Shown: positions 2,461 through 40,539, counted from the stretch's first letter. The stretch: DNA of 44,075 bases from a virus (IMGVR_UViG_3300002989_000038:1-44075); one strand, 5' to 3'. Numbers and translations: made by a program. Notes: generated by a model not told the origin, from the letters alone.

Positions 2461-2555
2461 GGTCAAGACCGATGACTGAGCCGCCCCGCTCTTCAGATTC
2501 AGACCGCTTCGGGGAACTTCCTGTTCGGTTCCGCCTGACAGGGCGCTCCCTAAAC

Positions 2556-2595
2556 AAAAAAAACCGGCCGCAGATAACTGCAGACCGGTTCTTTT
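2556..2595 (-). terminator. Rho-independent terminator, possibly bidirectional
   Basis: Imperfect stem AACCGGCCGCAG-ATAA-CTGCAGACCGGTT with A8 on one side (U8 on minus strand) and CTTTT on the other. Confidence 0.75.
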
Positions 2596-2780
2596 GAGAT
2601 GGATTTTTCAGCGCTGCTTAGTTTCAGGCACCGGCACTGTTCAGCAGATAGCGCCCTACCCAGTTTTTGGAAAACTAAGCCATTACTGTAAGCCACTGAT
2701 ATTAAATGATTTAGTTTATATGGCATAGATACTATTGGATACTCGGAAAGCCAAACAATATTGTTTTTTTAATTTATGCC

Positions 2781-2809
2781 TTGACATCAGATTACTTACC
2801 GCTCATAAC
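2781..2809 (+). promoter_or_regulatory. Putative sigma70 promoter of the GT2 moron
   Basis: TTGACA, 17 bp, CATAAC, preceded by an AT-rich UP-like tract. Confidence 0.5.
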
Positions 2810-2886
2810 GTGAAAGAGCCTGCCATCAACATGTAAGGTTGGTCATATATTAATTTCACTAATCCCTCAAGGGGAAGGAAAGCTTT

Positions 2887-3870
2887 ATGGAAAAAATGAA
2901 TGGAATATTATCGATTTGTATTCCTACATACAATCGTGCCGACAAACTAGCTTTGGGATTAGAATCTATTATAAGTCAAGTACACAATAAAAACATTCCC
3001 ATATACATCTCTGATAACAATTCATCGGATAATACTCGTGAAGTAGTTAGTACAATGAAACAAAAATATAAATATATCTTTTACACGTGCAACGAAACAA
3101 ATATGGGACCAGACTACAATTTTGAAAAAGTATTAAAGTATTCTTTAAGTACTTATTCATGGCTATTGAGTGACGACGACTTAATTATTAATGACGGTAT
3201 TGATTTAGTTCTTCAGTCAATAATCTCGGACCATGACTTAATTATAGTAAATGCAAAACAAGGCTTTAATGGTGCTGAAGCAAAGACAAGAGTACATCAC
3301 ACCCCTGATTTTTTATATACTGATAAAAATAAACTGCTCATTGATCTGGGATGGCATGCTACATGGATGAGTTGCCTGATATTCAGTAAAAAAATAATTG
3401 ATAATGGCAATTTCAAGAGATATAACAACACTTTATTTATACATTTTGGGACCATATTTGACTACTTAGGTCATCAAGATAAAATAAACGTTCTGTGGCT
3501 AAACGAACCTATAGTTAGCTATGCTAAAAATTCAGTTGCAGGCTACGACGAATCAAATTATATCGATATTTTCATAAAACATTGGTCAAATGTTGTAATG
3601 TTATTACCGGGTAGCTACACTAAAGAAGCAAAATCCTTATGCATTAAAAAACACGCTATTAGTCTTAATACTTTTAACTCAAGATACTTTTTATCATCCA
3701 GAGTGAAAGGTAATCTTAATATTAATATCTTTAAAGAATACTACCCATTTCTGAGAGTTGCTGCTACAGCTCCAATGCCTTTCATCTTTACATTTTGTCT
3801 ACTACCTAGATTGCTGTGTAAATGGGTTGAAATATCTTATAGCCGTCTTTATAAAATACTTCATGCATAA
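2887..3870 (+). CDS. Glycosyltransferase family 2 (moron; possible LPS/O-antigen modifier)
   Basis: 'LSICIPTYNRA', 'ISDNNSSDNT', 'WLLSDDD' GT-A motifs; very AT-rich; opposite strand to the phage genes. Confidence 0.9.
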   Translation: MEKMNGILSICIPTYNRADKLALGLESIISQVHNKNIPIYISDNNSSDNTREVVSTMKQKYKYIFYTCNETNMGPDYNFEKVLKYSLSTYSWLLSDDDLIINDGIDLVLQSIISDHDLIIVNAKQGFNGAEAKTRVHHTPDFLYTDKNKLLIDLGWHATWMSCLIFSKKIIDNGNFKRYNNTLFIHFGTIFDYLGHQDKINVLWLNEPIVSYAKNSVAGYDESNYIDIFIKHWSNVVMLLPGSYTKEAKSLCIKKHAISLNTFNSRYFLSSRVKGNLNINIFKEYYPFLRVAATAPMPFIFTFCLLPRLLCKWVEISYSRLYKILHA

Positions 3871-3884
3871 CAAGGACTAAGCCC

Positions 3885-4122
3885 CTATGCTTTTCTGTCC
3901 CCTTCATCGATTTCGCCCCTAAACAAAATCTTAAGAAAGATCACCCGCCAGCCTACTGCATATAGTGGATGCCATTGGGTTACGATCCCCGTCTGTGATT
4001 CATGCAGAAAACGAGGGATCAGGGTACATACTCGGCACTTCCGGGCCAATATATCTACCGTGCATATACCACATGCTGATAGCGTAAACGATGCAGTTCC
4101 CGTATCTCGTGGATAGCTCCAT
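3885..4122 (-). pseudogene. Frameshifted small phage protein
   Basis: ATG at 4122 abuts the upstream TAG; frame 1 MELSTRYGNCIVYAISMWYMHGRY continues in the +1 frame as ILARKCRV...LFRGEIDEGDRKA; junction lies in an (AT)n run at about 4048-4056. Confidence 0.5.
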
Positions 4123-5781
4123 CTAAAATAGCTTATACTTCTCGTAATCCCCCCAGTAAGGGATTCCCGGCACCGTTTCCGAGGTATAGATGTCGCAGTG
4201 CGAAGTAAACCCTTTCCGCGTATTGATGTGAATTGAGGGGTGCTGGCTGCTCCAGGTTGCATGTGGGCCCTTCGGCTCCAGGACGTCGTGGGTTGTACTC
4301 CTGGATATGAAGTGAACCATCATCTGCTCGAAATGCGCAATAGCCTCGTCAAACCGCATGGTCATTTCATGGAGCGGCTTTTGCCCTGGACTGCTTTGCT
4401 TCTGCCAGCCCACAGCACAGATCCCTTCGTAATTCTCGTTGTTCATCACACCCGTCCCGAACTCTGGAAAGTCGAAGTAACCCTCGGGGTAGAGCACATC
4501 GTGCTCCAGGAAACTCACGTAATCATATGCCCCGCAATCTCTCGCCAGGTATAGCGCCTGAAGGATCTGCACGTTTATGTTAAGGTGCGTCGAGTTTGTC
4601 GCCATGGCGATCACTTCGGGGAACGGGTTATTGGGTATGGAGTACCATGGGCAAGTGATGATGTCGGCTTTGTCCTCCAGGAGCTTTATCCTGCCCAAAA
4701 CGGTTTCGAGCAGGGCCGGTTGCCCGTTGTTGGTGTAAAATATGCCGAGCTTGTTCTTGGTGGAAGCGGGCACTCTTAATATCCCATGTTCGCCGACCGT
4801 ATGCGTTGATACCACTCCGTCTACTTTGTAGCTGAGTATTAACTCTTTCCGGACTCCCGGACAGGGATCCCCACCGAGGTGCTCATTCCGGACCGGAAGA
4901 ATCAAGGTAGCTCCGATGCATTTCTCCCTGACCAGGTTTGTGACATCAACTCCGCCGTACTCCGCGGTTAAAATTTCCAGCCCCATCGGTGACTCCTGGA
5001 TCAAGTATGGTTTAATTTTATCGGCTCCGAAATGCTCAATGAGCGGTGCGAGATCTAGCCCCAACTCCTGGAACCCTATGGTGTAGTTGCGCGTGCGGTC
5101 CGCGTAATCGCAAGGGTAGGGGATATCCCCGTTGCTGACCTTGAAGAGGTGTACCCAGGACAAGAAAGGCAGGCACAGTACCTCCCTTCCGGCCTGCCGA
5201 AATTTGGTGTGAATATAGCCTTCCTCCCCGCCGAATCCGCGAAACTCCGGGTTGAACCCAAGCCAGGCGTCTTTTCTGCAGCCGAAAAGCCCGAGGCCAT
5301 GCATCAAAATTGGATAAGGATCAGCATCAGGATCCACCTTCGCGCCTCTCCAGACTCCCCACATGCCGTTACCCCATTGATCGCTGAGTGCGTCGGCCTG
5401 ATTAGTAAGGTCATCGTAGGTGAGAGGACCTTGGAGTAAGTCCATACATCCCTGGTTGGCACCTACCCACTCTTTAAATCTGGCTACTGCTCCAGGGGAT
5501 AGGAGGACGTGCGGATCAATGCAGATGACCCACTCAGCGGTAGCCTCGCTGAAAATTAAATCACGAGGGGCCGCGGTACCTTGCTTTTCCGTATAACGGA
5601 TGTATCTTGCCACGCCGAAGGCAGCTCCTTCGACAAAGCTCTTAAGGTGGTCATCGCCATAGTTATCGATGATCAATATTTCTACGTCGGAGAGGTCCTG
5701 GTATAGCCTTAGGGATTGGACGGTGAACCAAACCTCAGCTCGATTATTGTAACTCGCCATCCCGATTGTTAACCTAGGCAT
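4123..5781 (-). CDS. Multidomain glycosyltransferase: GT-A (GT2/GT27-like) + SUEL/DUF3395-like lectin domain + second GT-A-like domain
   Basis: 'LTIGMASYN', 'IIDN', 'CIDPH', 'GLFG', 'GFGGEE'; middle 'LEILTAEYG..DVT...GGDPCPGVRKEL.LSY'; C-terminal 'YVSFLEHDVLY'; overlaps the upstream gene by 13 nt. Confidence 0.8.
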   Translation of the reverse strand: MPRLTIGMASYNNRAEVWFTVQSLRLYQDLSDVEILIIDNYGDDHLKSFVEGAAFGVARYIRYTEKQGTAAPRDLIFSEATAEWVICIDPHVLLSPGAVARFKEWVGANQGCMDLLQGPLTYDDLTNQADALSDQWGNGMWGVWRGAKVDPDADPYPILMHGLGLFGCRKDAWLGFNPEFRGFGGEEGYIHTKFRQAGREVLCLPFLSWVHLFKVSNGDIPYPCDYADRTRNYTIGFQELGLDLAPLIEHFGADKIKPYLIQESPMGLEILTAEYGGVDVTNLVREKCIGATLILPVRNEHLGGDPCPGVRKELILSYKVDGVVSTHTVGEHGILRVPASTKNKLGIFYTNNGQPALLETVLGRIKLLEDKADIITCPWYSIPNNPFPEVIAMATNSTHLNINVQILQALYLARDCGAYDYVSFLEHDVLYPEGYFDFPEFGTGVMNNENYEGICAVGWQKQSSPGQKPLHEMTMRFDEAIAHFEQMMVHFISRSTTHDVLEPKGPHATWSSQHPSIHINTRKGFTSHCDIYTSETVPGIPYWGDYEKYKLF

Positions 5782-8700
5782 TTTACCCCCCGGCTGGTAT
5801 TGATCTCGATAGGGCCAAAATCCCTTAAGGCTACGGCCACAACTCCGCTTGATGTTAGAATTTCTAGCGCACCTCCGGTGAATACCGGAATTTGGGTAGT
5901 GAAGCTACCTAGGCTGATCTCGACATATGGCGGCGGAGCGGCTGTCGTTGTCGTTGTTGTTGGCCTCGCCGTAGTCGTAGTCGGCCGAGCCGTAGTCGTC
6001 GTGGGGATCGCCGTGGTAGTCGTCGGAGGCGGTACCGATGTTGAGGTAGTCGGTGCGGCCGTGCTCGTAGTCGTTGCAGGGCCAGCCGTAGTCGTCCCGG
6101 TATTGCTGAAGTTGCTAAAGGTCACCGACGAGCGGGGCGCAGTCGGGGCGCCTGTTGTCGTGGGGGTTGCGATAGTCGTGGTAGTAGTCGTGGTCGGCAT
6201 TGCCGTAGTGGTAATTGGTGCAAAAGGGGTCGCCGAGACGATATCGCTGTAGCTGTCACCGTAAGCATTGACTGCCACCACGAAGATATGCCACGAGACG
6301 CCGTTGTTCAGCCCGGTGATGGTGAAAGGGAGGCCCGAGATCACATTCCCAAGATCATTCATGGCCCAATAAACATCAGGGTCGTTGGACCAATCGGCAC
6401 GCCATGAAGTAGCCCCTACGCCGCCCGAAAGAAGACTGACGGTTATACTTCCATTGCCTGGCACCAGGGCGATCTGTGGGACTGTTGGTTTAATGGGAGC
6501 TACTGTGGTGGTGGTGGGCACTGGGATTATCACCGTGTAAACAGAACTAGCGGGTGATTCTGTCCCGGTATTATTTACGCCTGTGAATGCAGTGAAAATG
6601 AATTTATACGTTACCCCCTGAAGGAAACCGCCACCAACGGTGGCTCCTGTTACGTCACTCATAGAAGTGTAAAAATGAGATAGTGAGGGTGTGGAACCAT
6701 CTATTGTAAAATAAGCTTTATAACTCAAAGCGCCTTGGTACGTCCCTGGATTGAGTGCAATACCTTGAGTACCTGAAGGAGTAGCACTTCCCCCAGTAGG
6801 ACCAGGTGCATTCAGGGTCGTAATGCTGAAAACGGCTGAAGCGGTCCCCACGGTTAACGTGAAGCTTGACGTCGTACTATAGCTGCCTGATGCGGTTGCC
6901 CGCATGATGATGCTGTCGCCGTTATTGACCATACCGAGGCCAATCCAGCTCCCGCTGTTATTCACCTGGAAAGCTGCTATACCCGCAGTAACTAATGTGG
7001 GTGTATTGATGCCTGTGATTATGACCGAGTTACTGAACTGCACCGACGATAAGGCTGCCCCGGTTATCGGGGTGAAACTGAAAGCATCCGGAGTCGAGTC
7101 GGGGCCAGGTGTTGTCGTCGGTGCTGTGGTCGTTGTCGTCGGTGCTGCAGTCGTTGTCGTCCCGGGAATAGCGGTAGTCGTCGTGACTCCAGGGGCAGCA
7201 GTAGTCGTTGTACCGGGAGCTGCTGTGGTTGTCGAACCCGGAGCTGCGGTAGTGGTGGCAGGGGCGGCCGTCGTTGTGGTGGTAGAAGTCGGGCCCGGCA
7301 TTATTGTCGTCGACGTTGATGCCGAATTTATGACCAAGTTTCCAGTATTTTCGTCCCAGGATACCGTAGAGCCGTTTGAGTAGGTAAGGAGCGTACTAAA
7401 ACCCGTGTTGAACCCATTGGTAATAGTGCGGGTTGGGACCTCCTTGGGGAGCATGTCCCATTGCTGCATCAGACTTAAAAGGGTAGGCTCGGCAGTCTGA
7501 AACGCGCTAGTAAATGAAGAGTTCGACGCCGCTGGAGTTGGAAATGTCCCGTACATATAATAAATCTCAGGGCGTCCATACCCCATCATCATTTTGATCT
7601 GCTCAATCAGTGCTGAACTCGTCGTAATGGTGGATGTCCATATATCATGACCGTTGGCATCTGTATCTATTACGCAATTCGGGGCATGAACTATCCCTAC
7701 TTTGTACTTTTTCTTAAATACGGCCTGCCATCCCGCAAAAAAATCCATTTGGTCATTTGTTCTGACCGAGTCAACATAGGGGGCGAAGTAAGGCTGATGT
7801 GCCTCTATAAAAAAATCAGGTTTCAACGTTTGCATCTTATTGTAAAAGACGGCCATCGCCATAAAAGTCTCAGCCATGTTCCCGTACATAAAATCGATCC
7901 GAGCATACTCAAACCCCAGATTGTACAGTTGTGTCGCGACTGACTCTATCGCTAGCCTTCCCGCCGGGGTGGTAGGATCGTAAGCTGCATACTGGCCCTT
8001 ATCAATTGTCGCATATCCACCAGCGTGCAGTCCGTGGGCCTTAATATACTGGACAACAGATTGGCCAGTACCGGCAAAATTTGCCATGTTCGCGGTTATG
8101 CCATCCGGTGCAGAAAGACCACCGTTAGTGAAGTTCCAACTACCAATAGCGTCAAACCAGCCGTAATCAACCTCAAAAAGGCTAACAGGATAATTTTGAG
8201 ACTGAATGACTGATATCCTATTTTCTATTTCTCCAGGGAGGTAGTACCAGACCCCAGAACCTGCTACAGTCCCATAATGCTGCACGGAATAATGGGGGAT
8301 GCGATACTGCCAAGCGGGTCGAACCTTAGGTGTCATATTGCGGGACACCCATTTATTATATTCAAGTTCCCCCTGCCACGAAGGAACAGTAGTTACAGCA
8401 AATCCTGCCGTAATTTTATCTACTCTTGCGCTGATTAAGGTACTGGCTGCGTAGAACTGATAAGCCTTATTGTAAAGAGCGAATAATTCACTAGTCATAT
8501 CATAATTGATGACCGCAGGATCGACATAGGGGCCAAGTCCTGAATACTGCCCCGATGCGTAAGGACCACCCCAGAAACGACCCACGGACGCGACATTGCA
8601 GGGTGATTGCCACGATCCGGTGTTATTCGCCCATTCTGATTGAACGTTGTTATCAAAACTTTTCGAAAGCGTAAAGTATTGAGTCGCTGTGACCGGGTAG

Positions 8701-9116
8701 GTAAGCTCAGTGTAAGTCTGAGCAAAAGTTAGAATTTCCGAACCCACAGATACTATCTTCCCTTCAAAAAGCTCCTTCCCCTCATAGAACCTTAGCCGGA
8801 CCGTTACCGGCTGAGTGGCGCCTCCGTCGGAAACCCCGTAAAGCAAATTTAGGTTGAGGTCTAAATACGCGCCGTACCCGTCTGACCCGAGGCTCGACGT
8901 AGCGCCCAAAAACTGCACCGGTCGTGTAAAGATTGCCCCCCCCGCGGTTTGATGCCTTAGAAATCCGCTTTTCGGGATAGAGAGGACACCCGGCACGCTC
9001 AGCACCGCCTGGGCGTCGTTGCCCGAAATAACGGAGTTGAGCGCGTCTTTGCTTATCGTTAGTGGATGCGTCCACCCCGACAGAGTTATATTACTGGTCG
9101 TCTCAGTGACATTCAT
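5769..9116 (-). CDS. Large accessory/tail-associated protein: clan-D (GH27/GH36-like) glycoside hydrolase barrel, Thr-rich mucin-like linkers, Fn3/Ig-like domains
   Basis: 'FEVDYGWF', 'GLHAGGY', 'GFEYARIDF', 'VRTND' motifs; PTTTT/TTTAAP tracts; 'PGNGSITVS...ITGLNNG..W.I.V.AVNAYG' Fn3. Confidence 0.65.
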   Translation of the reverse strand: MNVTETTSNITLSGWTHPLTISKDALNSVISGNDAQAVLSVPGVLSIPKSGFLRHQTAGGAIFTRPVQFLGATSSLGSDGYGAYLDLNLNLLYGVSDGGATQPVTVRLRFYEGKELFEGKIVSVGSEILTFAQTYTELTYPVTATQYFTLSKSFDNNVQSEWANNTGSWQSPCNVASVGRFWGGPYASGQYSGLGPYVDPAVINYDMTSELFALYNKAYQFYAASTLISARVDKITAGFAVTTVPSWQGELEYNKWVSRNMTPKVRPAWQYRIPHYSVQHYGTVAGSGVWYYLPGEIENRISVIQSQNYPVSLFEVDYGWFDAIGSWNFTNGGLSAPDGITANMANFAGTGQSVVQYIKAHGLHAGGYATIDKGQYAAYDPTTPAGRLAIESVATQLYNLGFEYARIDFMYGNMAETFMAMAVFYNKMQTLKPDFFIEAHQPYFAPYVDSVRTNDQMDFFAGWQAVFKKKYKVGIVHAPNCVIDTDANGHDIWTSTITTSSALIEQIKMMMGYGRPEIYYMYGTFPTPAASNSSFTSAFQTAEPTLLSLMQQWDMLPKEVPTRTITNGFNTGFSTLLTYSNGSTVSWDENTGNLVINSASTSTTIMPGPTSTTTTTAAPATTTAAPGSTTTAAPGTTTTAAPGVTTTTAIPGTTTTAAPTTTTTAPTTTPGPDSTPDAFSFTPITGAALSSVQFSNSVIITGINTPTLVTAGIAAFQVNNSGSWIGLGMVNNGDSIIMRATASGSYSTTSSFTLTVGTASAVFSITTLNAPGPTGGSATPSGTQGIALNPGTYQGALSYKAYFTIDGSTPSLSHFYTSMSDVTGATVGGGFLQGVTYKFIFTAFTGVNNTGTESPASSVYTVIIPVPTTTTVAPIKPTVPQIALVPGNGSITVSLLSGGVGATSWRADWSNDPDVYWAMNDLGNVISGLPFTITGLNNGVSWHIFVVAVNAYGDSYSDIVSATPFAPITTTAMPTTTTTTTIATPTTTGAPTAPRSSVTFSNFSNTGTTTAGPATTTSTAAPTTSTSVPPPTTTTAIPTTTTARPTTTTARPTTTTTTAAPPPYVEISLGSFTTQIPVFTGGALEILTSSGVVAVALRDFGPIEINTSRGVKCLG

Positions 9117-9236
9117 AAATTTCCCGTATACCTCGGTTAGAGCGGGGTTTACTCGGCTTGAGCAAGAGCACAGGACAGTAAGCGCCAGGGGCGCAAACTA
9201 TCCTCGAATTGTAAAGCATATTCTTAACTTCCCCAT

Positions 9237-10277
9237 TTAGAGTTGCTGGAAAGAGAACTGAGAAATATCACCTTCATTCTGAGTAAGCCCTGTCGAGATA
9301 CCTATCGATCCCGCGACTGAAATAGCGGAATCTATGTAGTCAAGCTGCCAGGTTGAGGGTTCGGTTGTTCCGTCTTTCCATGTCCGTATTTGGTGATGCG
9401 ACCCAACTAACCGGTACCGCACGCACCAAGTTTCCCCAACAATCGGAGCGGGGGAGATAGCCGAGTTGGACGGCCCGATGAGCGCGGCGGTTCCAGCCAC
9501 ATTTTTGACCAACATCAGGTACTGGCAGCTGAGTAAATTCTGGAACGCCGCGGCGTAATACGTGTTGTTGGCTGACCGACGCTGCATTAGGCCAACCTGG
9601 AACGTCGGCGCAACCGACGGGAAGGCGGATACATAGATTTTAGCGAATAGCTCACCGTCAAGTGGCGAAAAGGTATTCACCCACATGTGCTTATCGCCGG
9701 TATAGGACGCCTGCTGATAATGAATTTTGTTAGATACAACCGAGAACCCGGTATCCTGGGTCCAGCTTGCGCCAATCGACGTTGCACCCGTTGCGAAATA
9801 ATCCACTATGACCGGTGCGGCAGTAGTGGTGGTAACCGGAGCTACGGTCGTGGTTGTGGTAGTCGTCGGAGCAGCCGTGGTCGTTGTCGGTGCTACCGTG
9901 GTGGTAGTCGGGGCAGCCGTAGTCGTTGCCGTAGTCGCCGTGAACGCCGTCCCCCTCGTCCAGCTCCCAGCCCCAAAAGCGCTATCAGTTACCAAAACAG
10001 CCGGAGTGTAGGTCGTCCCGGAGACGAGGTTGGCCGAGGAAAGCGCATACCCCGTGCCATTCGAGGACGTGCCCCGGTTCGTCGCCAGTAGGAAATTAGC
10101 GCAATCCTGAGCCGTGGTGAGAATGAACCCCCGGCCGGCAGCCATGGCGGCCGCTTCCCCCGTACCAAGGGCCTGTGCTACCTCTGTAGCAGTCATCCAG
10201 ACAACATTAATTTGCGTCACAATCGCGGGATTCGGGGTTTCCGGCTGGCCGGAAATAGCGTGTACCAGGGCGTCCAT
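9237..10277 (-). CDS. Thr-rich linker protein with a C-terminal ConA/lectin-like beta-sandwich (putative tail accessory)
   Basis: TTTAAPTTTT tract followed by an aromatic beta-rich domain ('W.VRYRL.G...R.WKDGT.EP..W...D....G.IGI'); SD AAGGAG. Confidence 0.55.
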   Translation of the reverse strand: MDALVHAISGQPETPNPAIVTQINVVWMTATEVAQALGTGEAAAMAAGRGFILTTAQDCANFLLATNRGTSSNGTGYALSSANLVSGTTYTPAVLVTDSAFGAGSWTRGTAFTATTATTTAAPTTTTVAPTTTTAAPTTTTTTTVAPVTTTTAAPVIVDYFATGATSIGASWTQDTGFSVVSNKIHYQQASYTGDKHMWVNTFSPLDGELFAKIYVSAFPSVAPTFQVGLMQRRSANNTYYAAAFQNLLSCQYLMLVKNVAGTAALIGPSNSAISPAPIVGETWCVRYRLVGSHHQIRTWKDGTTEPSTWQLDYIDSAISVAGSIGISTGLTQNEGDISQFSFQQL

Positions 10278-10288
10278 GGAGTCTCTCC

Positions 10289-11530
10289 TTAGTGGATATT
10301 GCTGAAAATGACTGAGACCGCTGGGCTCGTACCAGCAGCGAAATTAGTGAAGGTCACCGATGAATGCGGAGCAACCGGCGCTGCCGTGGTCGTAGTCGGA
10401 GCGGCCGTGGTCGTCGTCGGCGCAGCCGTGGTCGTGGTCGGCGCAGCCGTGGTCGTGCTCGGCGCAGCCGTGGTCGTGGTCGGCGCAGCCGTGGTCGTGG
10501 TCGGCGCAGCCGTGGTCGTGGTCGGTGCTGCCGTGGTCGTCGCTTGCGGAGCAGTGCTCAGGTATGCACTGAGTCCGCTGGTACCTGCACTATTACCCGC
10601 GGTCACCCTAAAGTAGTAGAGCTGCCCGGGAGCAAGCCCGGTAACCACATACTGCGTGGTGTCAGCTGCAATACCGGTGATTTTACCTGCGAAGGCATCC
10701 GGAACCGTCGGGTAGGGATTGGCTCCATCTTTAGTGCTGACGTTAAAACTATTAGATATCGAGTAGTAGACGCTATAGGTGTCCTCTGTCGCCACGTCAC
10801 CCCAATTTACTGTCACCTGGCCGGGTCCTGCTGTAAGCGGGTGTATAGTTGGAGTGGATGGTACTGCCGGTGCTATGGTTGTCGCCGGTGCCACCATTGT
10901 GGTAGTGGCGGGGGCTGCCGTCGTGGTGATTGGCTGCGCCGTAGTCGTGGTCGGCGCACGGGTAGTAGTAGCCGGAGTAACCGTCGTGGTTGTCGGCGCC
11001 GCCGTCGTGGTAGTCGGAACCAACGTGGTGGTGACCGGAGGGGCCGTAGTCGTTGGCGTGACCGTGGTTGTCGGCCCTGCGGTCGTTGTGACCGGCGGGG
11101 AATACCCCAGGAGATCCATCCTCACGACGACCGTATAGCCTGCCAAGCGCAGCGCGTCCGCCTCGGCCTGGCTCCAAGCCTCGACGATACCGGTGTTACG
11201 TGCGCTTATCGCCACGTCCAGCATGCGCAGCGCCTGGGTCAGCAGGGCCAGGACATTCGCATCTCCTGCCGAGACCTCGGGCAAGCCCAGGGCCGGGGTG
11301 AAATCCACCGTAATAGAGTAGGCGGAATTCACCGCATCAGCCTGAAGAAAGTTACCCACTAGGGAGAGCTGAGTGTCGGAGTCTACCGATCCAATGGTGT
11401 ACTGCAAGCCGGTGCCGGGGATGCTGAACATTGACCCGGCAGAGACGTTGGCCAGGAACTGTGTCCCCAAACCCTGTACCTGGCTGCTCCCCTTTGCTGC
11501 ATTGACTGATCCTGCTTTATACTGAGCCAT
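10289..11530 (-). CDS. Tail fibre-like protein: phage fibre N-terminus, mucin-like tracts and an Fn3 domain
   Basis: 'MAQYKAGSVN...GS.QVQG.GTQF' fibre attachment-like start; 'VTGLAPGQLYYFRVTAGNSAG.S' Fn3; APTTTTA repeats; SD GGAGG. Confidence 0.7.
   Translation of the reverse strand: MAQYKAGSVNAAKGSSQVQGLGTQFLANVSAGSMFSIPGTGLQYTIGSVDSDTQLSLVGNFLQADAVNSAYSITVDFTPALGLPEVSAGDANVLALLTQALRMLDVAISARNTGIVEAWSQAEADALRLAGYTVVVRMDLLGYSPPVTTTAGPTTTVTPTTTAPPVTTTLVPTTTTAAPTTTTVTPATTTRAPTTTTAQPITTTAAPATTTMVAPATTIAPAVPSTPTIHPLTAGPGQVTVNWGDVATEDTYSVYYSISNSFNVSTKDGANPYPTVPDAFAGKITGIAADTTQYVVTGLAPGQLYYFRVTAGNSAGTSGLSAYLSTAPQATTTAAPTTTTAAPTTTTAAPTTTTAAPSTTTAAPTTTTAAPTTTTAAPTTTTAAPVAPHSSVTFTNFAAGTSPAVSVIFSNIH
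10383..10541. repeat. Coding 21-bp tandem repeat, about 7.5 copies (encodes APTTTTA)
   Basis: Consensus GCCGTGGTCGTGGTCGGCGCA repeated head to tail with no spacers. Confidence 0.95.
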
Positions 11531-32488: not shown

Positions 32489-32524
32489 GTAGACACCATG
32501 GACACTGTGGACACTATGGACAAC
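32489..32524. repeat. Four 9-bp direct repeats upstream of the head operon (regulator binding sites)
   Basis: GTAGACACC ATGGACACT GTGGACACT ATGGACAAC; on the minus strand followed by TGATAAT, 11 nt before the W ATG. Confidence 0.75.
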
Positions 32525-32572
32525 TATTTTTATTTATTGCATTATTTTTATCTAATAACTTACCTTAAAAAA

Positions 32573-32820: not shown

Positions 32821-34719
32821 CTATCGGCGGTTGCTAAACCAATTGGGCAAACTGGCTTTTTGCGGTATGACTGCCTTATGTGGGACCGGCGACGGTTCTG
32901 CACGGCCAATCTGCGGCACTTTGGAGCGGATCCTGATGATATCTGCCGCGGCGAAGCCGTAGACTTTGATATCGAAAAAATGGTTTGCCTTTCCATTGGG
33001 GCAGATCCAGTAACCGCGCTCGTCCTGGTACTCTGCACAGAGCTGCCGGGCATAGCCCATATCGGTGGACATCTCGGCATGCAGGTGAATGGACCCGGGG
33101 GCGCCTGGATGCAGCTTCAGCTTCCCGGCCAGCTGGTTCTTGAACATAGTTACGTTAATGGTATAGAGGTTCAGCCCACCGCCGGGGATCGGGATCTTCT
33201 TCCCATCGCGGCTCGGGTAGTAGTCCAGATGAGTGACCCTCCAAGGCGCGCCGTCCCGACTACCCTTAAGCGGCTTGAAGATCGGGTTATCGCTGCAGAA
33301 CTCATAAACCTCCTTGGTCCGGCTGTGCTTCGGCTTCGAGGGGTTAGTACCGCCGCCGGAGTCGATGAAAGCGGCAAATATGCCGTGCTCAGCGCCCCGG
33401 GCTGTTTTAAAACGCTGCTCGGAAAGTTCCTTCAACTGGTCGAAACTCTCCGCGTAACCATGGTCTATGGTCCAGCTCTCCAGATTCTTACCGGGGGCAA
33501 ACGCGACCACCTCATAGTAAAAACCTACCTGCTGGGTATCGACCAGGAGTAGCAGGCAGTGGATATCCGCCGGTACGATCTCGCGGGGCATGGAGGGATC
33601 GACAAACGAGAGAATCTCGCTTTCCTTGCGCGTGGTTCGCTCGGCTTCGTATTTTTTGGCCCGGTAGGAGTTGTCCAGCTCGATCTGGTCGGCGATATCT
33701 CCGGAGCGCGCTTTGACAATGGCGGCCGCGTACTCGGAGAGCGAGATATCCGGGCAGATCATGGCATCGATGATGAAACCGACGGAGACGGGACGCGCGA
33801 CCTGTGTACGAGCCTTCCAGCGACCGAGGCGCACGGCCCGGTCCCGGTCCATGTCGTTCCAGAGGACTCCGCAGCCGTCGCAGGCATAGCGGGCAGATTT
33901 ATCATTGATTAACTGCTTCGGATCTACCTCTGGCTGCGATGGGGGGAGTTTTCCGGACAATTCCATCTGACCCGGCCAGGCAAGGTGGTCCTCAACCATT
34001 TTCTGCTCTTTCGCACAATGGGGACAGACTACCTGGTAGTCGAGTTGCTCCATGCAGGCGTCGAACGCTTTGCTAATCAGCGAACCGGAGCCCGCGGGGG
34101 AGCTGCACTTGATCTTCTTGGGGCGGCGGAAGGTGGTAGCTCGCTTCTCCATCAGGTTGAGCGCATGGGTCTCCTTGCCGGCTAGGTCTTCGTTCTTATC
34201 GACCTCGTCGGCGAATACATCATCGGCGGGGAAGGAGGAAATCTCCGAGGGGGAGGAGCCCCAGACGGGATAGATGACGGTGCCGTCGCGGAAGGCGATC
34301 CGGCTGGCCGTGGTATCGTCCGGATTGGCGGAGAGCTTCTTGGCGACCGGAGCGCACATGCGGTAGATCGGTATCAGGCGGTCCTTGGCGATCTTCTTGG
34401 CGAGGTTCTCCTTGGGGAGCATCACGTATTTGACGTTGCCGCCACGGTAGACGATCGCGTAGAGGTGCATGTTGATGCAGCCGTTGGATTTTCCGGACTG
34501 CGGGACACCGCAGACGACGATCTCCTGCACCCAGGGGAGGTTGTAGGTATCCATGATCTGGGTCAGATAGGGCGTGATGGAGTTATCCCAGTCGCCCTGA
34601 TGTTGGCCAAGGGTCACCTTTCGGTGCTTGGCGGCGAATTCGGAGACCTTGAGGGGCTCCTTCTGGCGCCAGATCTCCAGTTCTCCCGGGAACCAGCTAT
34701 GCGCAAGGGCGATTGTCAC
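32821..34719 (-). CDS. Terminase large subunit (GpA family)
   Basis: 'TPYL..IMD', 'QSGKS', 'ADEVD', 'R..TF', 'CPHC', 'VDTQ', 'IDSGG', 'NH.FD..VY..AAA'. Confidence 0.95.
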   Translation of the reverse strand: MTIALAHSWFPGELEIWRQKEPLKVSEFAAKHRKVTLGQHQGDWDNSITPYLTQIMDTYNLPWVQEIVVCGVPQSGKSNGCINMHLYAIVYRGGNVKYVMLPKENLAKKIAKDRLIPIYRMCAPVAKKLSANPDDTTASRIAFRDGTVIYPVWGSSPSEISSFPADDVFADEVDKNEDLAGKETHALNLMEKRATTFRRPKKIKCSSPAGSGSLISKAFDACMEQLDYQVVCPHCAKEQKMVEDHLAWPGQMELSGKLPPSQPEVDPKQLINDKSARYACDGCGVLWNDMDRDRAVRLGRWKARTQVARPVSVGFIIDAMICPDISLSEYAAAIVKARSGDIADQIELDNSYRAKKYEAERTTRKESEILSFVDPSMPREIVPADIHCLLLLVDTQQVGFYYEVVAFAPGKNLESWTIDHGYAESFDQLKELSEQRFKTARGAEHGIFAAFIDSGGGTNPSKPKHSRTKEVYEFCSDNPIFKPLKGSRDGAPWRVTHLDYYPSRDGKKIPIPGGGLNLYTINVTMFKNQLAGKLKLHPGAPGSIHLHAEMSTDMGYARQLCAEYQDERGYWICPNGKANHFFDIKVYGFAAADIIRIRSKVPQIGRAEPSPVPHKAVIPQKASLPNWFSNRR

Positions 34720-35438
34720 TCTGTCTCAGCTCCAAAACTGGTTGATTGCGCGTAGCGGTCGAGCCACGCGTCGAGTTTGCGGTCGTATTCGTCATGGAGA
34801 TCCGGAATGACCGCCTGCAGATTGATATCCTCCACGTCCAGCCCCTGTGCCCTCAAATAATCGGAGATAACGTCGACCAGCTGGTCACAGAGTCGGGGGC
34901 CGAAGTTGCCGAGGTCCTTTTTTAAAAAAGAAGCGGCGGCGGCGCAGCGCTGCTCTACATCAGAGCGCAGGATATAGTTTTTACGGGTGATCTCGTTGGC
35001 GAGGGTCAGCTTATCGGCCTGTTCCTTCATGTAGCGGTTTTTGTGGTCGGTGTCCTCTTCGTTTGCCGGCTGACACGGCTTACTCGGGTTCTCCCAGGCC
35101 TGCGCCGCATAGGCCTCGATCTCGTTTTTCAGGTAGCTGCCGTCCTTCTGCTTGCGGGGGAAGCCGGTGGAGCGGTCTGCATGGTTTCGAACGGTGCGCG
35201 CGCTCACCAGGTACCCGGCGCCCGCGATCCATGCAGCGGCCTGCTCGATGTTTTTGAAGCGCTCGCCGCTCTCGGCCTGAGACTGACCCGACAGGAAGGT
35301 ATCGAGCGCTTTCTTCGCTGCCGAGTAGGCCTTGATGTTGGCCGTGCTCGGGTCGGTCGCCATAGTATCCATCGCCGTGACTAGATTGGTCTTAAGGGCA
35401 GACTCGAGGTCGGCTATGCGGGCGTCAACGTCGGTCAC
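34716..35438 (-). CDS. Putative terminase small subunit
   Basis: Winged-HTH-like segment then coiled coil; overlaps the terL start. Confidence 0.6.
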   Translation of the reverse strand: MTDVDARIADLESALKTNLVTAMDTMATDPSTANIKAYSAAKKALDTFLSGQSQAESGERFKNIEQAAAWIAGAGYLVSARTVRNHADRSTGFPRKQKDGSYLKNEIEAYAAQAWENPSKPCQPANEEDTDHKNRYMKEQADKLTLANEITRKNYILRSDVEQRCAAAASFLKKDLGNFGPRLCDQLVDVISDYLRAQGLDVEDINLQAVIPDLHDEYDRKLDAWLDRYAQSTSFGAETE

Positions 35439-35749
35439 TTTATTCTCCGAACCATCTCATCGATAATGCGCTGGGCTACTACCTGGACGTGAAGAGCCTC
35501 CCGGAGGATGCCGTGATCACCTTCCAACTCGTTGAGCCACAGGGCAAGCTTGAGCTCGCGGACTTCGCGCTCAAGGTGCCGCGGCATCTCCCAGCGTTCG
35601 AGCGCGGCCCATTCCTCAGGAGGATGCTTTACCGTGGCGGCAACATACTCTTTTGCGAATGCCACGCCCAGATATACGAGCCGAGCGGGTGCATAGCTTT
35701 GGTCCTGATATTCTTCTGTCAGTTTTGTATATCCGTTGCTACCGCTCAC
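35435..35749 (-). CDS. Hypothetical protein
   Basis: Strong SD GGAGGAGGAG, GTG start, overlap with terS. Confidence 0.65.
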   Translation of the reverse strand: MSGSNGYTKLTEEYQDQSYAPARLVYLGVAFAKEYVAATVKHPPEEWAALERWEMPRHLEREVRELKLALWLNELEGDHGILREALHVQVVAQRIIDEMVRRIK

Positions 35750-35765: not shown

Positions 35766-35813
35766 GGTTTAACCCGGCGCTCGACCGCGAGGCGGTCAGC
35801 TTATCGTTAAACC
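35766..35813 (+). other. attC-like recombination site 1 (48 bp)
   Basis: GGTTTAAC-CCGGC-GCT(C)GACCGC-GAG-GCGGTCAGC-TTATC-GTTAAACC: terminal inverted R boxes, unpaired spacers, inner stem with one extrahelical base. Confidence 0.7.
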
Positions 35814-36487
35814 GCCCCCACCAGAGTGTCGATGAAATCACCGATTTTCATTCCGACAGGGCATTTACTTTCCAACAGTTTCCAATTCACACCATCGTTG
35901 CCATCTACCGCATCGAACGCAGCAGCTCGGCATTCCTCGCAAACTTCGACCGTGGTAGCCGGAACCACACCGCAACGCTCGCAAGAGCCATCGCCAGGAT
36001 GAGGAACTAGGGATTGCAACCGCGACACCTCTGCCAGAAGCCGTAGCCCTGATTCTTCTCTCGCACGAACCTGCTTATCGGAAGATTCAATCAAACTTTG
36101 CAGATTGGCGACATGGGCTTTGTTCGCACCTTTTTCAATATTGAGCCGATGATCGGCAAGTTTCAGCGCCGTTCTCAACTGCTCAACCTCAGTGGCGTGC
36201 CGATCAAACGACATGCACACCCAGCCATCTTTAAGCCCGTAGCCGTCCAGAATGTGGGTAACCTCGGCATAGAGCTCGCGGTGGGTGTAATTCAGGGGTT
36301 TGCCAGGGGTCCGGTCGTTATGCAGAGGCTTGTCCCTCATTTCCTCCCCTGTATGCACGGTCTCTCTCAGGTAAAGCGTATCCCCTACCAGGAAGTTACG
36401 GTCATTGAAGCGGATTTCAAAAGTCTTGCGACCGTCAAGAACCGCTTGAAAAACTTCGCGGTCCGTCTTCAGTTCATGTCCCGCCAT
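35807..36487 (-). CDS. DUF3850/ASCH-like (PUA fold) protein with coiled coil and CxxC-CxxC
   Basis: 'HELK....FQAV.DG.KTFE.R.NDR.F.VGD.L.LRE', 'VTHIL..YGL..GWV.MS'; stop TAA inside the site 1 R box. Confidence 0.85.
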   Translation of the reverse strand: MAGHELKTDREVFQAVLDGRKTFEIRFNDRNFLVGDTLYLRETVHTGEEMRDKPLHNDRTPGKPLNYTHRELYAEVTHILDGYGLKDGWVCMSFDRHATEVEQLRTALKLADHRLNIEKGANKAHVANLQSLIESSDKQVRAREESGLRLLAEVSRLQSLVPHPGDGSCERCGVVPATTVEVCEECRAAAFDAVDGNDGVNWKLLESKCPVGMKIGDFIDTLVGAV

Positions 36488-36505
36488 GCTGTCGCTCCTT
36501 GCGCA

Positions 36506-36553
36506 GGTTTAACACCCGCTCGTGCCTGTCGGCACAGCTAAATTCGTTAAACC
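36506..36553 (+). other. attC-like recombination site 2 (48 bp)
   Basis: GGTTTAAC-ACCC-GCT(C)GTGCC-TGTC-GGCACAGC-TAAATTC-GTTAAACC. Confidence 0.7.
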
Positions 36554-36557
36554 GACT

Positions 36558-36770
36558 CTATTTCAAGCCCTTCAGCGCGGTATTCCTAATATCCCTGCCG
36601 AGTCCTGAAAGCTGTTCATCACCCATACGCTCAACGATCTTGATCAGTGCAGCCCTCGCGACCGTATCAGCGACAGCCCGTAATCTGCACCCTCGCTGGT
36701 ATCCAGCATAAAAAGACACGGCACAAGCCAGGAAGAGGCCACTCCAGAACTGGAAAGCTAATTCGCTCAT
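36558..36770 (-). CDS. Small membrane hypothetical protein
   Basis: N-terminal hydrophobic helix; ATGA overlap with the upstream gene. Confidence 0.6.
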   Translation of the reverse strand: MSELAFQFWSGLFLACAVSFYAGYQRGCRLRAVADTVARAALIKIVERMGDEQLSGLGRDIRNTALKGLK

Positions 36771-37384
36771 GGCCGCACCGCCTCTGCCAGCACATCCAAC
36801 GGCCTCACCAGGCTAGAACTCTCGGGGTGGTACTTCAATAATTTACGCAGCACAAGGTACCGAACCGCCTCGCCAACCATCTCCTTTGCCTCGTCCGGTT
36901 CAGGGGTGGTGATGTCATACCAGACTCCGATATGTGGCCCACTGTGCCGAGCACCTTCGCAGTAGCACTCGATATCGGAACGGGCAGAAGCATACGCGAT
37001 AGACTGCTCCAGCTGGTACAGCTCGCCACCAATCAGCTTTCCGTGACTTTTCGCCATCAGCTCCCATGCCTTGCTCTTGGTTTTCAGGCGCTCCATTTCT
37101 TCCCGCAGATCCTTCTCGTACATTTCCAGGCTCTCGATGAAGGCCATCACGTCCAATGCGCTATAGACAGAAGAGACCGAGACGGTAACATCTTCTTGGT
37201 CAAGCTCATCAGCTTTGTCCGCCTCTGCCAGCAGGTACGGCGAGACGATCCCGGCCACACGCGTTACGTCTTTCTTGCGCGCTAAGTAGAGAGCCGCTTT
37301 GTGCTCCGGTGACCCTGCCTCAAGTTGCTCACCCAGCAAATGAGAGTTACTGCCATCAAATAGTGCATCTGCTTTTCCCATCAT
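36767..37384 (-). CDS. Hypothetical protein
   Basis: 205-aa ORF with SD GAGGAG immediately after the site 3 R box. Confidence 0.7.
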   Translation of the reverse strand: MMGKADALFDGSNSHLLGEQLEAGSPEHKAALYLARKKDVTRVAGIVSPYLLAEADKADELDQEDVTVSVSSVYSALDVMAFIESLEMYEKDLREEMERLKTKSKAWELMAKSHGKLIGGELYQLEQSIAYASARSDIECYCEGARHSGPHIGVWYDITTPEPDEAKEMVGEAVRYLVLRKLLKYHPESSSLVRPLDVLAEAVRP

Positions 37385-37395
37385 CCCCTCCTCAG

Positions 37396-37446
37396 GGTTT
37401 AACCAATCGCTCGTCCGCTACGCGGCCAGCTCTAAACCACTAAACC
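37396..37446 (+). other. attC-like site 3 (right end degenerate)
   Basis: GGTTTAAC-CAATC-GCT(C)GTCCGC-TAC-GCGGCCAGC-TCTAAACC-ACTAAACC; the GTT of the right box is missing. Confidence 0.55.
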
Positions 37447-37886
37447 TCAATTACCGGCGGCCGCCCCTCGTATCGCTGCCACGCCGCCAGGTGCCATTTT
37501 TCCCAAATCCTTAACTGCTCAAGCAGCTGCACCTCATCCTCTGCCGCAAATGCCACATCGACTGCAGCACTTGCCTGTGCTAAACGGTCCAATACATCCA
37601 GGCGGTTCACCTCAAGCCACTCGAGGGCTCCGCTCGGGCATATGGAGATCACCCGGCTATAGGTATCGCTGATGAGTTGCTGCATTTTGTCGGTCTGAAA
37701 TGATTTCCCATCGACCGCGCCGGAAAGAGAAAACCCGCAGGACTGGCACTTACCAGCATTTTCCTCCAGATCGATGCGGAAGCGGACAGCTCCGCCGCAT
37801 TCAGGGCAGGGCCCTGCATACTGTCCGGGGGATAATTCCCTGTAGTTTCCGAACTTTTTTACCAGGTCTAAGATCATTATTGGCAC
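37440..37886 (-). CDS. Primase-type zinc-ribbon protein
   Basis: 'YAGPCPECGG..RF........CQSCG' resembles the primase/helicase Zn-binding domain. Confidence 0.7.
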   Translation of the reverse strand: MPIMILDLVKKFGNYRELSPGQYAGPCPECGGAVRFRIDLEENAGKCQSCGFSLSGAVDGKSFQTDKMQQLISDTYSRVISICPSGALEWLEVNRLDVLDRLAQASAAVDVAFAAEDEVQLLEQLRIWEKWHLAAWQRYEGRPPVIEV

Positions 37887-37894
37887 CCTGCTCC

Positions 37895-38142
37895 TATTAT
37901 TACGCTTCAGTCCGGCTTATTACGCTTATGATTACGATTTAAGTACTTAATATTATGTTGTTATTACGCTTATTACTTGATTACGATAGGCATATAACGC
38001 GCGCGAACGTTCTTTATATGTTATGGGTTTACCCTCGCGCATATACGCGGGGGATGAATAAGCGTAATAAGCGTAATAATCTTTAAAAATCAATGATTTC
38101 ATGCGTAATAACTCCCGTAATCATGCGTAATAACCGTAATCA
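37895..38142. promoter_or_regulatory. Putative phage replication origin with inverted iteron arrays
   Basis: Six ATTAC(G/T) on the left (37899-37985) facing six CGTAAT on the right (38063-38140); AT-rich; directly downstream of the primase-helicase. Confidence 0.8.
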
Positions 38143-40539
38143 AATCTCGAATTTACCCGCTTTTGCGAACTCAAAATAGCAACACGTTAGCCAATCCTCT
38201 TGCGTCTGGCCTTCAGCACGCCGCCAATCCTCGCTGAGCAGGTGATCAGGTGGCACTACCATCTTCCGGCTGATACGCGTCGTACTATTCAGATCCTCTA
38301 GGGTGGTGAACGGCCTGCCGGATAGCCATCCTGGTTGCATATTGAGGTCCCCCATAAATTGCCGGTAGACCCTGGGCTTGGGCTCGTTGTTCCATTCACA
38401 GGATTTTTTGTAGACACTGAACAGCTGGGTGCCCAAGCACGGGCAGAAGGGTATCCCCGGTACGTCTCCCTGCTGCCATGCCCGGAGGAATGCCGAGACA
38501 CTATCCATGCTGACGTTAATCAGCTGCTCCTTGGCACGGGTCAACGGCGGCTTGGTATGTGGGTTAAACCCGCCTAGATCGAGATGCAGTAGGTAGTGAT
38601 GTAGCGCAGCAACACCTCCGCTCCGGATCTCTTCATGCACCTGACCATAAAATTTTTCGTCCAGCTTTTCCGGTGTATGGACCACTGTGTAGCGCCGGTC
38701 GTCCTTCTCCAATACCAAGGGCTGAGCCTCATTAGATAGGAAGGCCAGATTGACGTGGTTCCGCTCATCATGGGCCATGACATTTTTAGGGTTTATCCGG
38801 ATCCACTCCCCGGTGACGAGGCCTTTTAACTTATTTTTGACGTGGTAAAGCTCCGTGCGCGCGACGACCTCATCTGCGATGAGGAAAAGTTTTTTGCTCG
38901 CCCAATCATTAAATTTATCCTCGATCGCTGACTGGTCGACGATGCGGCCATAATCGCCGTAGATAGACATGATCGCTTCAAAGAACAGGTTTTTACCAGT
39001 CCCCTGCCCCCCGTGGAATACAAGTGCCGTCCGCATTTTCGCGCCGGGGAACTGGATAGGGTAGGCAACCCACTTAAGCACCCAGTCGTAAACCGAAGCT
39101 GGGTCCTCCTCATTGCTGCACAGATACTGGAGCAGTTCCAGGAGACAATCGCAGCAGCCGGCTTTGGGTTCGGTCGGCCAGCCACCCCATAGGTTGCAGA
39201 GGATGCGCGGATCGGTGCCCGCAGGGTCGAAACCGACTTCCTCGAGGCGCACGACTCGCTTCTTATCGCGCATGTCGCGCCACCCGTGCTCGGGGAGGAT
39301 GTCCAGGACGTCTGATTTCGGTACTAGGATATTCTCCTGATGGTCAAACATTGTGGCCTTTCCGCCGTAGACCAGCGAATATCGGTCTATCGCCTCATCA
39401 ATGGTGATCATCGATTTCAGCGAAGCACGCTTTCCCCCGCCCCCTACTGGTGTCACTTGGCGCGGCTTTTCGTCCCAGCCAAGCTCATTAACCCGGGCCT
39501 CTATCTGCTCGGCAACCAGAGAGATGCTCTCCAGACAGTGCAAGTCGTTGAAATCGGTCGGTCCCTTTGCATCGGTGGGGCGATCCGCAGTGAAGCGCGG
39601 CTTGATCCAGGCACCATCGGTAGCGACTGCCGCGGCTTCAGCATTGAGGACTCCGGCATTGGTTTTCTTGTGGGGCTGGCCACAGTGCAGGCAGGTATCG
39701 GTCGCCACCGTAGTGAACTTATGGCAGGCGTCGCACTTCTGCACCCAGTCGTCATCGGCGCAGATCAGCTGGTGCGCTCGGCGGTACTTTTTTTTAAGGG
39801 CCTGGGCTGCAGGCATGATGTTATTGGCGGACCAGACAGCAGCGCAGGGAAGACCGGTAGCCTCATGAAGGGTCGCAGCAGTCGCGTAGCCCTCGGCAAG
39901 GAGTAGGATCCGGCCCGAAGCCTTGCCTATTAGGTGGTAAGTCCCCCGCATCTGCAGGCCTTTGGGCCAGAATTCCTTGTCCCGGCCAGTCCTGGCTATG
40001 CGCTCATGTCCTCGAGGCAGGATAAACTGTAGCCCCCGGATGGAATTACGGTCATCACACATGGGTACAATGACGGCGCCGGTCTCGCTGAACCGGACGC
40101 CATGGGCGCCGACCTGCTTGCGGTCGAGGTATTCGCTGTCACCATCTAGCTGGCTGGCTGCCCAGGTCTTGGCGGCACGCTTGGACGCCAGGTCAGCTTC
40201 GCGCCGGCGCTCAGCCTCGGCCTGCTTATTGGCTTCCCGGTGTCTCACCTTTTGCGCCAGGAGCTGCTCGGGGGTCAGGTGCCCCCGTTTCTCCTTGGAG
40301 AGCGCGATGGTCTGTTTGCCATTATCGGAGCCTCGATAGATCCCGTATGCACCGATGACGAGGGAGTCGCCCGAGACGTTCAGGCAAGAGAGCCAGTACC
40401 AGCCCCGCTTTTCCCGCGGGCTGTCCTCAGTCCTGCAGCGAACGGGGCGCGCAGTGTCCACCAGGAGCTGATCAACAATAAGCCCGTAGTCACGCATCTG
40501 GCTGAGCGCGTCATCATGGTTAGAAAAATCAGGCACCAA
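38140..40539 (-). CDS. Primase-helicase (TOPRIM primase + SF3-like helicase)
   Basis: 'YL.RK.V', 'LQFI', 'AEGYATAATL.EA', 'CADDD', 'TDFNDL', Walker A 'GGQGTGKN', 'ADEV', 'DRRY.V'. Confidence 0.92.
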   Translation of the reverse strand: MVPDFSNHDDALSQMRDYGLIVDQLLVDTARPVRCRTEDSPREKRGWYWLSCLNVSGDSLVIGAYGIYRGSDNGKQTIALSKEKRGHLTPEQLLAQKVRHREANKQAEAERRREADLASKRAAKTWAASQLDGDSEYLDRKQVGAHGVRFSETGAVIVPMCDDRNSIRGLQFILPRGHERIARTGRDKEFWPKGLQMRGTYHLIGKASGRILLLAEGYATAATLHEATGLPCAAVWSANNIMPAAQALKKKYRRAHQLICADDDWVQKCDACHKFTTVATDTCLHCGQPHKKTNAGVLNAEAAAVATDGAWIKPRFTADRPTDAKGPTDFNDLHCLESISLVAEQIEARVNELGWDEKPRQVTPVGGGGKRASLKSMITIDEAIDRYSLVYGGKATMFDHQENILVPKSDVLDILPEHGWRDMRDKKRVVRLEEVGFDPAGTDPRILCNLWGGWPTEPKAGCCDCLLELLQYLCSNEEDPASVYDWVLKWVAYPIQFPGAKMRTALVFHGGQGTGKNLFFEAIMSIYGDYGRIVDQSAIEDKFNDWASKKLFLIADEVVARTELYHVKNKLKGLVTGEWIRINPKNVMAHDERNHVNLAFLSNEAQPLVLEKDDRRYTVVHTPEKLDEKFYGQVHEEIRSGGVAALHHYLLHLDLGGFNPHTKPPLTRAKEQLINVSMDSVSAFLRAWQQGDVPGIPFCPCLGTQLFSVYKKSCEWNNEPKPRVYRQFMGDLNMQPGWLSGRPFTTLEDLNSTTRISRKMVVPPDHLLSEDWRRAEGQTQEDWLTCCYFEFAKAGKFEI

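Follow-up and report, generated by a model that had tools for sequence, protein, structure and literature searches.

Short attC-type hairpins in a phage genome point to a probable remnant of a phage-carried integron

Three short hairpins between the replication and packaging genes of the phage studied here are most probably attC-type recombination sites, and the array that they delimit is likely what remains, without its integrase, of an integron carried by a family of phages. Judging from sequence comparison, we give this reading a probability of about 0.85. The analysis follows up a prediction made from the DNA alone, which missed two features described below: the cassette genes are antisense, and the integrase is encoded by related phages.

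Hairpin sites between terS and the primase gene

The window, by which we mean the whole stretch of DNA analysed, is a linear virus record of 44,075 bp with a completeness of ~89%; the slot of the array is covered in full. The gene content is lambda-like, with primase, terS, terL, portal, capsid and tail genes, and almost every gene is on the - strand. Eight of ten window proteins looked up also occur on one 121,703-bp contig, which suggests a prophage; several relatives are classed as provirus, and the window itself ends without host flank. That the phage is a prophage, as first assumed, is likely on the indirect basis of the large contig. The named TerL homologues (n = 8, 38-46% identity) are from Deltaproteobacteria, Oryzomonas, Desulfobulbaceae, Desulfobulbus and, in one case, Limnohabitans; among cultured phages the best TerL match is 28% and no array match was found. 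The two sequencing runs that contain the stretch or part of it, one of them only a small share, are peat metagenomes. The features of the slot and its borders are as follows.

34716-35438, - strand: terS (phrog_57, E 1.9e-5), left boundary of the array slot
35435-35749, - strand: W4, 104 aa, the gene of E1; stop overlaps the terS start, cassette end lost
35767-35812, + (top) strand: E1, intact attC-type site, 46 nt; R'' 35767-35773, R' 35806-35812
35807-36487, - strand: W3, 226 aa, N-terminal DUF3850/ASCH-like domain (Pfam PF12961, E 1.5e-19; phrog_986)
35807-36546, no strand assigned: cassette 1, 740 bp, W3 and E2, delimited by the G|TT positions
36507-36552, + strand: E2, intact attC-type site; bulged C 36521, R' 36546-36552
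36547-37439, no strand assigned: cassette 2, 893 bp, W2, W1 and E3; probably locked
36558-36770, - strand: W2, 70 aa, no family, in cassette 2
36767-37384, - strand: W1, 205 aa, no family, in cassette 2
37397-37445, + strand: E3, decayed attC, 49 nt; bulged C 37412, GTT changed to ACT
37440-37886, - strand: W0, primase-like gene with an internal deletion, bounding the array on the right
38140-40539, - strand: primase of the window

All three sites have the same layout on the + strand, namely R'' (GTTTAAC), 4-5 nt, GCT, a bulged C, a stem-loop, AGC, 5-8 nt and R', with an inner stem of 5-6 bp and a loop of 3-4 nt. The motif GTTTAAC-N3-7-GCTC, which was derived from the sites themselves, occurs three times in the window against 0.07 expected, with a maximum of one in 100 shuffles. 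In E1, R'' is followed by a 5-nt spacer, an L arm with the bulged C at 35782, a 3-nt loop, a 5-nt spacer and R', and the predicted cut lies at 35806/35807; that of E2 lies at 36546/36547. Both sites fold into an R stem, an unpaired spacer (5/5 and 4/7 nt), three base pairs, the bulged C, a stem and a loop. Counted with their 8-bp terminal pairing, E1 (35766-35813) and E2 (36506-36553) measure 48 bp each, and all three elements lie where the original prediction had placed them. A covariance model scan of the window found no fourth site.

E1 and E2 carry the paired RYYYAAC (R'') and GTTRRRY (R') ends of an attC site, whereas E3, which is joined to the stop codon of the upstream gene, has the right end ACTAAAC in place of GTTAAAC. 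The inner stem of E3 contains a T/C mismatch, and the element folds weakly. The folding z-scores are -2.8 to -4.2 for E1 and E2 and -1.4/-2.2 for E3, and the core R pair probability is 0.81-0.96 in the former and at most 0.07 in the latter. E3 is probably dead, and at most one cassette of the window would therefore be mobile. An intact E3 with GTTAAAC, accompanied by the same gene, stands in the related contig L055.

The unpaired central spacer and the first extrahelical base (EHB), a bottom-strand G three pairs into L'', are present in the same register as in aadA7. The second EHB, a T 6-8 nt further, is absent from the stem, as the loop starts there. The sites, of 46, 46 and 49 nt, also lie outside the 57-142 nt given for attC by Bouvier 2009 (PMC2727003), according to which a second stem-borne EHB is needed for full efficiency.

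Cassette genes run antisense to the sites

Stop codons fall within the right box at E1 (35807-35809) and E3 (37440-37442) and 5 nt past it at E2, and, on the - strand, the left box of each of the three sites is followed by a Shine-Dalgarno sequence (SD) and a start. This is the gene arrangement noticed from the start; the stop-bearing box turns out to be R', as opposed to R'' in classical cassettes. The assignment depends on which strand is the top one. The EHB G sets strand choice, and most sites have a G next after the AAC of R' (Bouvier 2009, PMC2727003). We take the + strand as the top strand because the EHB position and the base beside the R' core both mark it so; among all sites collected here, a C precedes R' on the top strand in 52/52, a count partly built into the model that found them. 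With the bulged C on the + strand and the genes on the - strand, the cassette genes point the opposite way to those of classical integrons, and their coding strand is the bottom, recombinogenic strand of the sites. The classical arrangement, an ORF on the top strand with its stop near R'', is not found in the window. The same polarity prevails in the site family as a whole, where an SD-led ORF (at least 40 aa, start at most 45 nt away) lies on the bottom strand at 45/52 sites and on the top strand at 2/52.

Cassette 1 is the sole one with both ends intact, and its own R'' pairs fully with its own start; the ends first predicted for it, 35807 and 36546, agree with the G|TT positions. Cassettes have a GC content of 53.5-54.8%, compared with 57-59% for primase, terS and terL. 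W1 has homologues, whole or in part, in the arrays of L055, L004, L229, L062, L205, L005 and L252. Within cassette 2 lies a gene joint of another kind (36763-36790, - strand), an SD with an overlapping stop and start that reads EAVRP-stop. An exact 18-mer of this joint occurs in 26 viral stretches and recurs at accessory-gene borders, and the joint is common to the window, L004, L045, L069, L082 and L095; within cassettes it could serve as a further point of exchange. At the right border, residues 1-53 and 59-148 of W0 match both ends of the 519-aa primase-like protein of L004. As a separate observation, the primase of the window (38140-40539) and L045 differs from that of L004 and L055.

The site family in related phages

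Relatives were gathered by TerL, by terS, and by pattern scans together with a covariance model, giving 52 sites on 21 contigs, window included; duplicate loci of one contig were removed, and one further site (L055 2091) was recognised by eye. Because many contigs have cassettes in common or are related to each other, the counts given here are not independent events. L004 is 90% identical to the window from E1 into terL, yet has four sites and mostly different genes; its near-identical copy of E1 keeps the left neighbour, whereas the gene on the right is another one. Upstream of 37440 the identity of L045 to the window is 89%, after which it carries another array. The 46-mer of E2 stands, identical, ahead of a different gene in L069, and its 32-nt interior equals that of the first attC after attI and intI in L256. 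Homology between the window and L004 resumes within genes as well as at sites.

In an alignment of 31 sites, 91% of the cells are paired and 9 of 16 pairs show two-sided changes, the structure having been taken from the same 31 sequences, which are related to each other, so that shuffle counts cannot be read as probabilities. When built from these sites alone, a covariance model recognises the top strand of TJE1_attC2, an experimentally validated site (25.4 bits, E 0.0067); it has no match to TJE1_attC1, nor to any PH101 or P12002L site. Lengths of 44-53 nt are found for 47/51 sites, and five longer sites of 87-89 nt occur in arrays. The metagenome pattern scan returned 21 stretches, five of them real (L045, L046, L047, L055 and L056, the last being the window's own record). 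No host array was found in the pattern scan of genome_contigs, whose ten stretches were treated as chance, none having a second site or a full fold. A loose viral scan gave 119 loci, mostly chance, and a long attC used as query returned no useful plasmid match.

The hairpins, each of them ahead of a ribosome-binding site, might instead be RNA signals that act in processing, in transcript stability or in the control of translation. A coding-strand hairpin does stand just before the SD at 45/52 sites, and covariation cannot separate RNA from DNA. Rfam, however, gave one weak, irrelevant match, no terminator is called at the sites, and a promoter/terminator scan was at chance level. Such signals would also leave the pairing of boxes at opposite ends, the G|TT junctions and the adjoining attI-intI unexplained, and we consider this reading very improbable, though the hairpins may have an added effect on mRNA.

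Family sites also occupy other slots, after terL in L062 (5247-5295) and, in L069 (4180-7666), upstream of the genes for head-tail adaptor and portal; L256, a differently organised phage, carries them too; the system is thus not bound to one genome position. Reverse-transcriptase-like ORFs, recognised by eye, lie upstream of terS in L005 (100-1338) and L062 (9-488, with YMDD), in the slot used by the integron in other relatives.

Predicted position of the cut and pairing in the putative circle

If a cassette leaves as a circle cut between G and TT, pairing is expected between its R'' and the bases with which it begins. With each cassette taken from one TT to the next G, the four outer positions are fully paired in 21/31 neighbour pairs as circles versus 7/31 as arrayed; pairing is better in 17, equal in 12 and worse in two. 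Permutation gave a mean of 9.0, and 0/50,000 reached 21. Where R'' is other than the common GTTTAAC, full pairing is found for 7/15 as circles versus 0/15 as arrayed. Before three register corrections by hand and the addition of one site, the result was 19/30 versus 7/30. Pairing in the circle is imperfect in 10/31 pairs.

Sequence junctions fall at the same place. Ten site pairs, one of which looks spurious, share the gene-start flank only and have a mean inner identity of 0.89, and one pair sharing only the other flank has 0.71, with a background of 0.56 (1,125 pairs). Five of the ten are identical across a 60-nt flank and the site interior and first diverge 0-6 nt after GTT. A contig of run X2 departs from L255 at base 101, the C of AAC, into another attI-like sequence. 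Among the metagenome contigs listed there was no window-phage circle or empty-site joint, though contigs cannot exclude either. The gene content between sites, which varies among relatives, and the junctions at or just after G|TT bear out the original attC reading. They are also consistent with the cassette shuffling that it proposed, within the limit set by E3 of at most one mobile cassette in the window.

Such patterns have to be weighed against exchange without IntI, in which the attC sites are fossils and short joints in common (site plus SD, or the EAVRP linker) recombine through homology or microhomology. The window has neither IntI nor attI, E3 and the cassette end of W4 are decayed, homology to L004 restarts inside genes too, and the second joint motif, EAVRP, is widespread. 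Identical sites, moreover, precede different, unrelated genes (E2 in the window and in L069), which implies that some exchange is not IntI-mediated. Homology-driven exchange, however, predicts neither G|TT breakpoints in otherwise identical pairs nor pairing in the circle, and E1 and E2 retain full pairing. We regard it as a possible but rather unlikely account of the array as a whole; it can fit the present state of the window while the integron explanation fits its origin.

Integrase and attI in the operon of related phages

In the window, no tyrosine recombinase was found, nor any attI-like core near the array, and because the stop of W4 overlaps the start of terS, attI, intI and the short ORF that accompanies them elsewhere are absent from its slot. 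This makes the array a likely remnant. The order in relatives is primase, cassettes, attI, intI, short ORF and terS, with one strand for all genes. Among the five closest TerL relatives (L004-L008), L006 and L007 (TerL 72% and 71%) have attI, intI and the short ORF immediately before terS, L004 and L005 have no attI-intI before terS in the sequence examined, and L008 ends within the short ORF. L017 has a window-like primase followed by cassettes, attI, intI and terL. A full IntI above the TIGR02249 cut-off occurs in 3/19 related virus records, 0.6-0.9 kb from the nearest site; a fourth record holds an IntI piece at the contig end, and tblastn adds IntI in L007 and L017.

In 6/10 intI loci a script detected an attI core (TAA-6 nt-GTT), at a distance of 50-72 nt from the start of intI; in L069 the core is present without intI. 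The attI R box pairs 7/7 with the R'' of the first cassette in 5/5 loci where the script found both, and likewise 7/7 in L258, with 4/7 in L259 on a doubtful call. Separately, a stranded attI-like core fused to an attC-like box lies inside the array of L045 (7703-7722).

The relatives' IntI has the residues R-K-H-R-H-Y, presumably in their usual roles, together with the IntI-specific insertion, and aligns with VchIntIA (PDB 2A3V) over residues 37-340 (E 1.5e-59). The phage-linked proteins are 387-388 aa long with a C-terminal extension of ~45 aa, and ~75 homologues share a length of 385-389 aa and the extension, which in L251 (7015-7167) and homologues gives a weak RelB-like (ribbon-helix-helix) match below cut-off.

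IntI and Xer are related families, and relatives of the window phage have ordinary phage integrases, so that one might ask if the sites serve another tyrosine recombinase, either a phage integrase or, on folded DNA, the XerCD of the host. The phage integrase of L004, however, scores 59.7 against the TIGR02249 cut-off of 265 and lies far from the array, while a true IntI adjoins the array in other relatives; we see scarcely any probability in this idea.

The integrase had been predicted to act in trans. The window indeed has none of its own, but as related phages carry attI and intI in this very slot, it need not come from the host. Run X1, possibly the source of the window, contains another 41-kb contig with a related intI, from the same sample and not necessarily the same cell.

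The array could also be a captured piece of a host chromosomal integron served by host IntI only, as with the captured integrons of Qi 2023. Geobacter species carry intI (Nemergut 2008), several of the named TerL homologues are from Desulfobacterota-type hosts, and the five sites of 87-89 nt in arrays would suit such an origin. The cargo speaks for the phage. Among first-in-cassette proteins, 13/41 match PHROGs, mostly with unknown function, and the matched cargo, which also includes ASCH-like, Lar-like, PAPS reductase, kinase-like, phosphoesterase and methyltransferase families, is phage-type and co-oriented with the phage genes. PADLOC matched 2/30 cassette proteins (PAPS-reductase-like and methyltransferase) and 0/4 from the window. 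Moreover, intI sits in the phage operon with its own SD, and window-type terL or portal lies downstream in six of the 18 viral loci found by IntI alignment. Capture from a host is thus improbable in our view.

Relation to known integrons

The phage-carried integron proposed here has precedents in part. Qi 2023 (PMC9892861) reports 17 CALINs and three complete integrons among 10,705 genomes, with IntI1 active on 5/6 sites. A CALIN is defined there by at least two attC sites no more than 3 kb apart, with intI absent from the vicinity; the window has two intact sites 740 bp apart, one decayed site and no intI. Like the window, the phage CALINs of that study are attC clusters without integrase amid phage genes. 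TJE1_attC1 resembles E1 and E2 in being short (50 nt), with one bulge and without the second stem EHB, yet it recombined with IntI1 (PMC9892861). The length of about 57 bp or more initially quoted as normal for attC is not reached by E1, E2 or E3, and a phage site of 50 nt is known to work nonetheless. The aadA7 control in the supplement of the same study shares the anatomy of the window sites: R'', 5 nt, 3 nt and a top-strand bulged C.

TJE1 cassettes have the classical sense orientation, unlike those of the window. In PH101_attC1, as in the window, the top strand of the tested site is opposite the annotated genes, and one + strand ORF is also in the array. The published CALIN of phage PH101 (L246 2421-4478) contains four attC-like sites, all with annotated genes opposite to their top strand, and the blocks that flank it are duplicated. 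Phage attC clusters and a working 50-nt site are therefore already known from PMC9892861, as are antisense genes in PH101 on our own check. The complete integrons of that study are a host chromosomal fragment, class 1 integrons and a cryptic-prophage integron; by contrast, the relatives of the window have intI in the phage operon and their cassettes move between phages. Its main text makes no remark on antisense genes and reports no cross-phage shuffling. Our literature search, with subscription journals mostly outside its coverage, found no report of phage-run integrons with reversed cassettes.

With classical integrons the sites share the R''/L''/L'/R' layout, the unpaired spacer, the bottom-strand EHB G and the G|TT junction, and the relatives share a bottom-strand intI reading away from attI and an IntI that passes TIGR02249. 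They differ in that the cassette ORFs are antisense, the sites are mostly 44-53 nt without a second stem-borne EHB, some family cassettes carry at least two genes, IntI is C-terminally extended, and the window has neither intI nor attI. SALINs and attG sites (Loot, bioRxiv 10.1101/2022.09.11.507474) have in common with the window an attC without integrase, and the outermost sites of L004 and L045 retain only the GTT of R', as insertion at a GWT site, described in that preprint, would leave. Unlike SALINs as set out there, the window array has several sites, and a true attI stands beside intI in relatives.

Proposed mechanism

Based on the above data, we propose that the integron of this phage family sits between the replication and packaging genes with classical intI/attI/attC geometry, the cassette ORFs alone being flipped. 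Cassettes and intI would be read from the phage operon and not from an integron Pc promoter; Pc would then not be needed, which would explain the flipped ORFs. The substrate of IntI would be the bottom (coding) strand in its folded form, cut at AA|C (G|TT on top), so that site, SD and gene leave as a circle and insert at attI or another attC. This excision and insertion step follows from the junction and pairing patterns and from established integron chemistry. The lineage of the window has no attI-intI and has probably lost them. Recombination of E1 with E2 could still release 35807-36546, and nothing else, if IntI came from the host or from a sibling phage resident in the same cell, while cassette 2 and W4 would be fixed. 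The orientation of an array relative to replication is reported to affect folding and excision (Loot 2017); if the repeats at 37897-38142 are a replication origin, the bottom strand would be the putative lagging-strand template.

A wider reading, on which we place about even odds from the sequences compared, is that a temperate phage group has domesticated an integron: a phage-linked, operon-transcribed IntI with a ribbon-helix-helix-like tail would shuffle reversed mini-cassettes of the phage's own genes, integrase-less siblings such as the window phage would borrow IntI in co-infected cells, and ORF swaps behind a reused attC and SD would make cassettes. Identical sites ahead of different genes bear on how cassettes are first made; if the wider reading is true, ORF swaps behind attC and SD would show one way in which new cassettes arise. 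For temperate phages, variability of the accessory regions is commonly ascribed to homologous or illegitimate recombination, as PMC13492144 describes; here a site-specific system with exact cut points would operate in the replication/packaging slot. The usual rule is that strand choice puts the gene under the integron promoter (stated in PMC2727003 and 10.1101/2022.09.11.507474), and the reversed ORFs break it. The 46-nt, single-bulge sites, being under the usual size range, are ready substrates for defining minimal attC requirements. As the window is a decaying, integrase-less member of the family, its value is mostly comparative.

Other features of the window

The interval at the primase end mentioned above (37897-38142) is AT-rich with 9-bp direct and inverted repeats and is a possible replication origin; L017 has a similar stretch after its primase. 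Four 9-bp tandem repeats (32492-32527) lie between an excisionase-like HTH gene and the head-tail adaptor gene. The tail end of the window (48-11530) is unusual and encodes an Ig/NHL-repeat protein and two GT2 glycosyltransferases, one of them on the + strand in DNA of 33% GC; genes in the same region contain 21-bp repeats encoding threonine-rich linkers.
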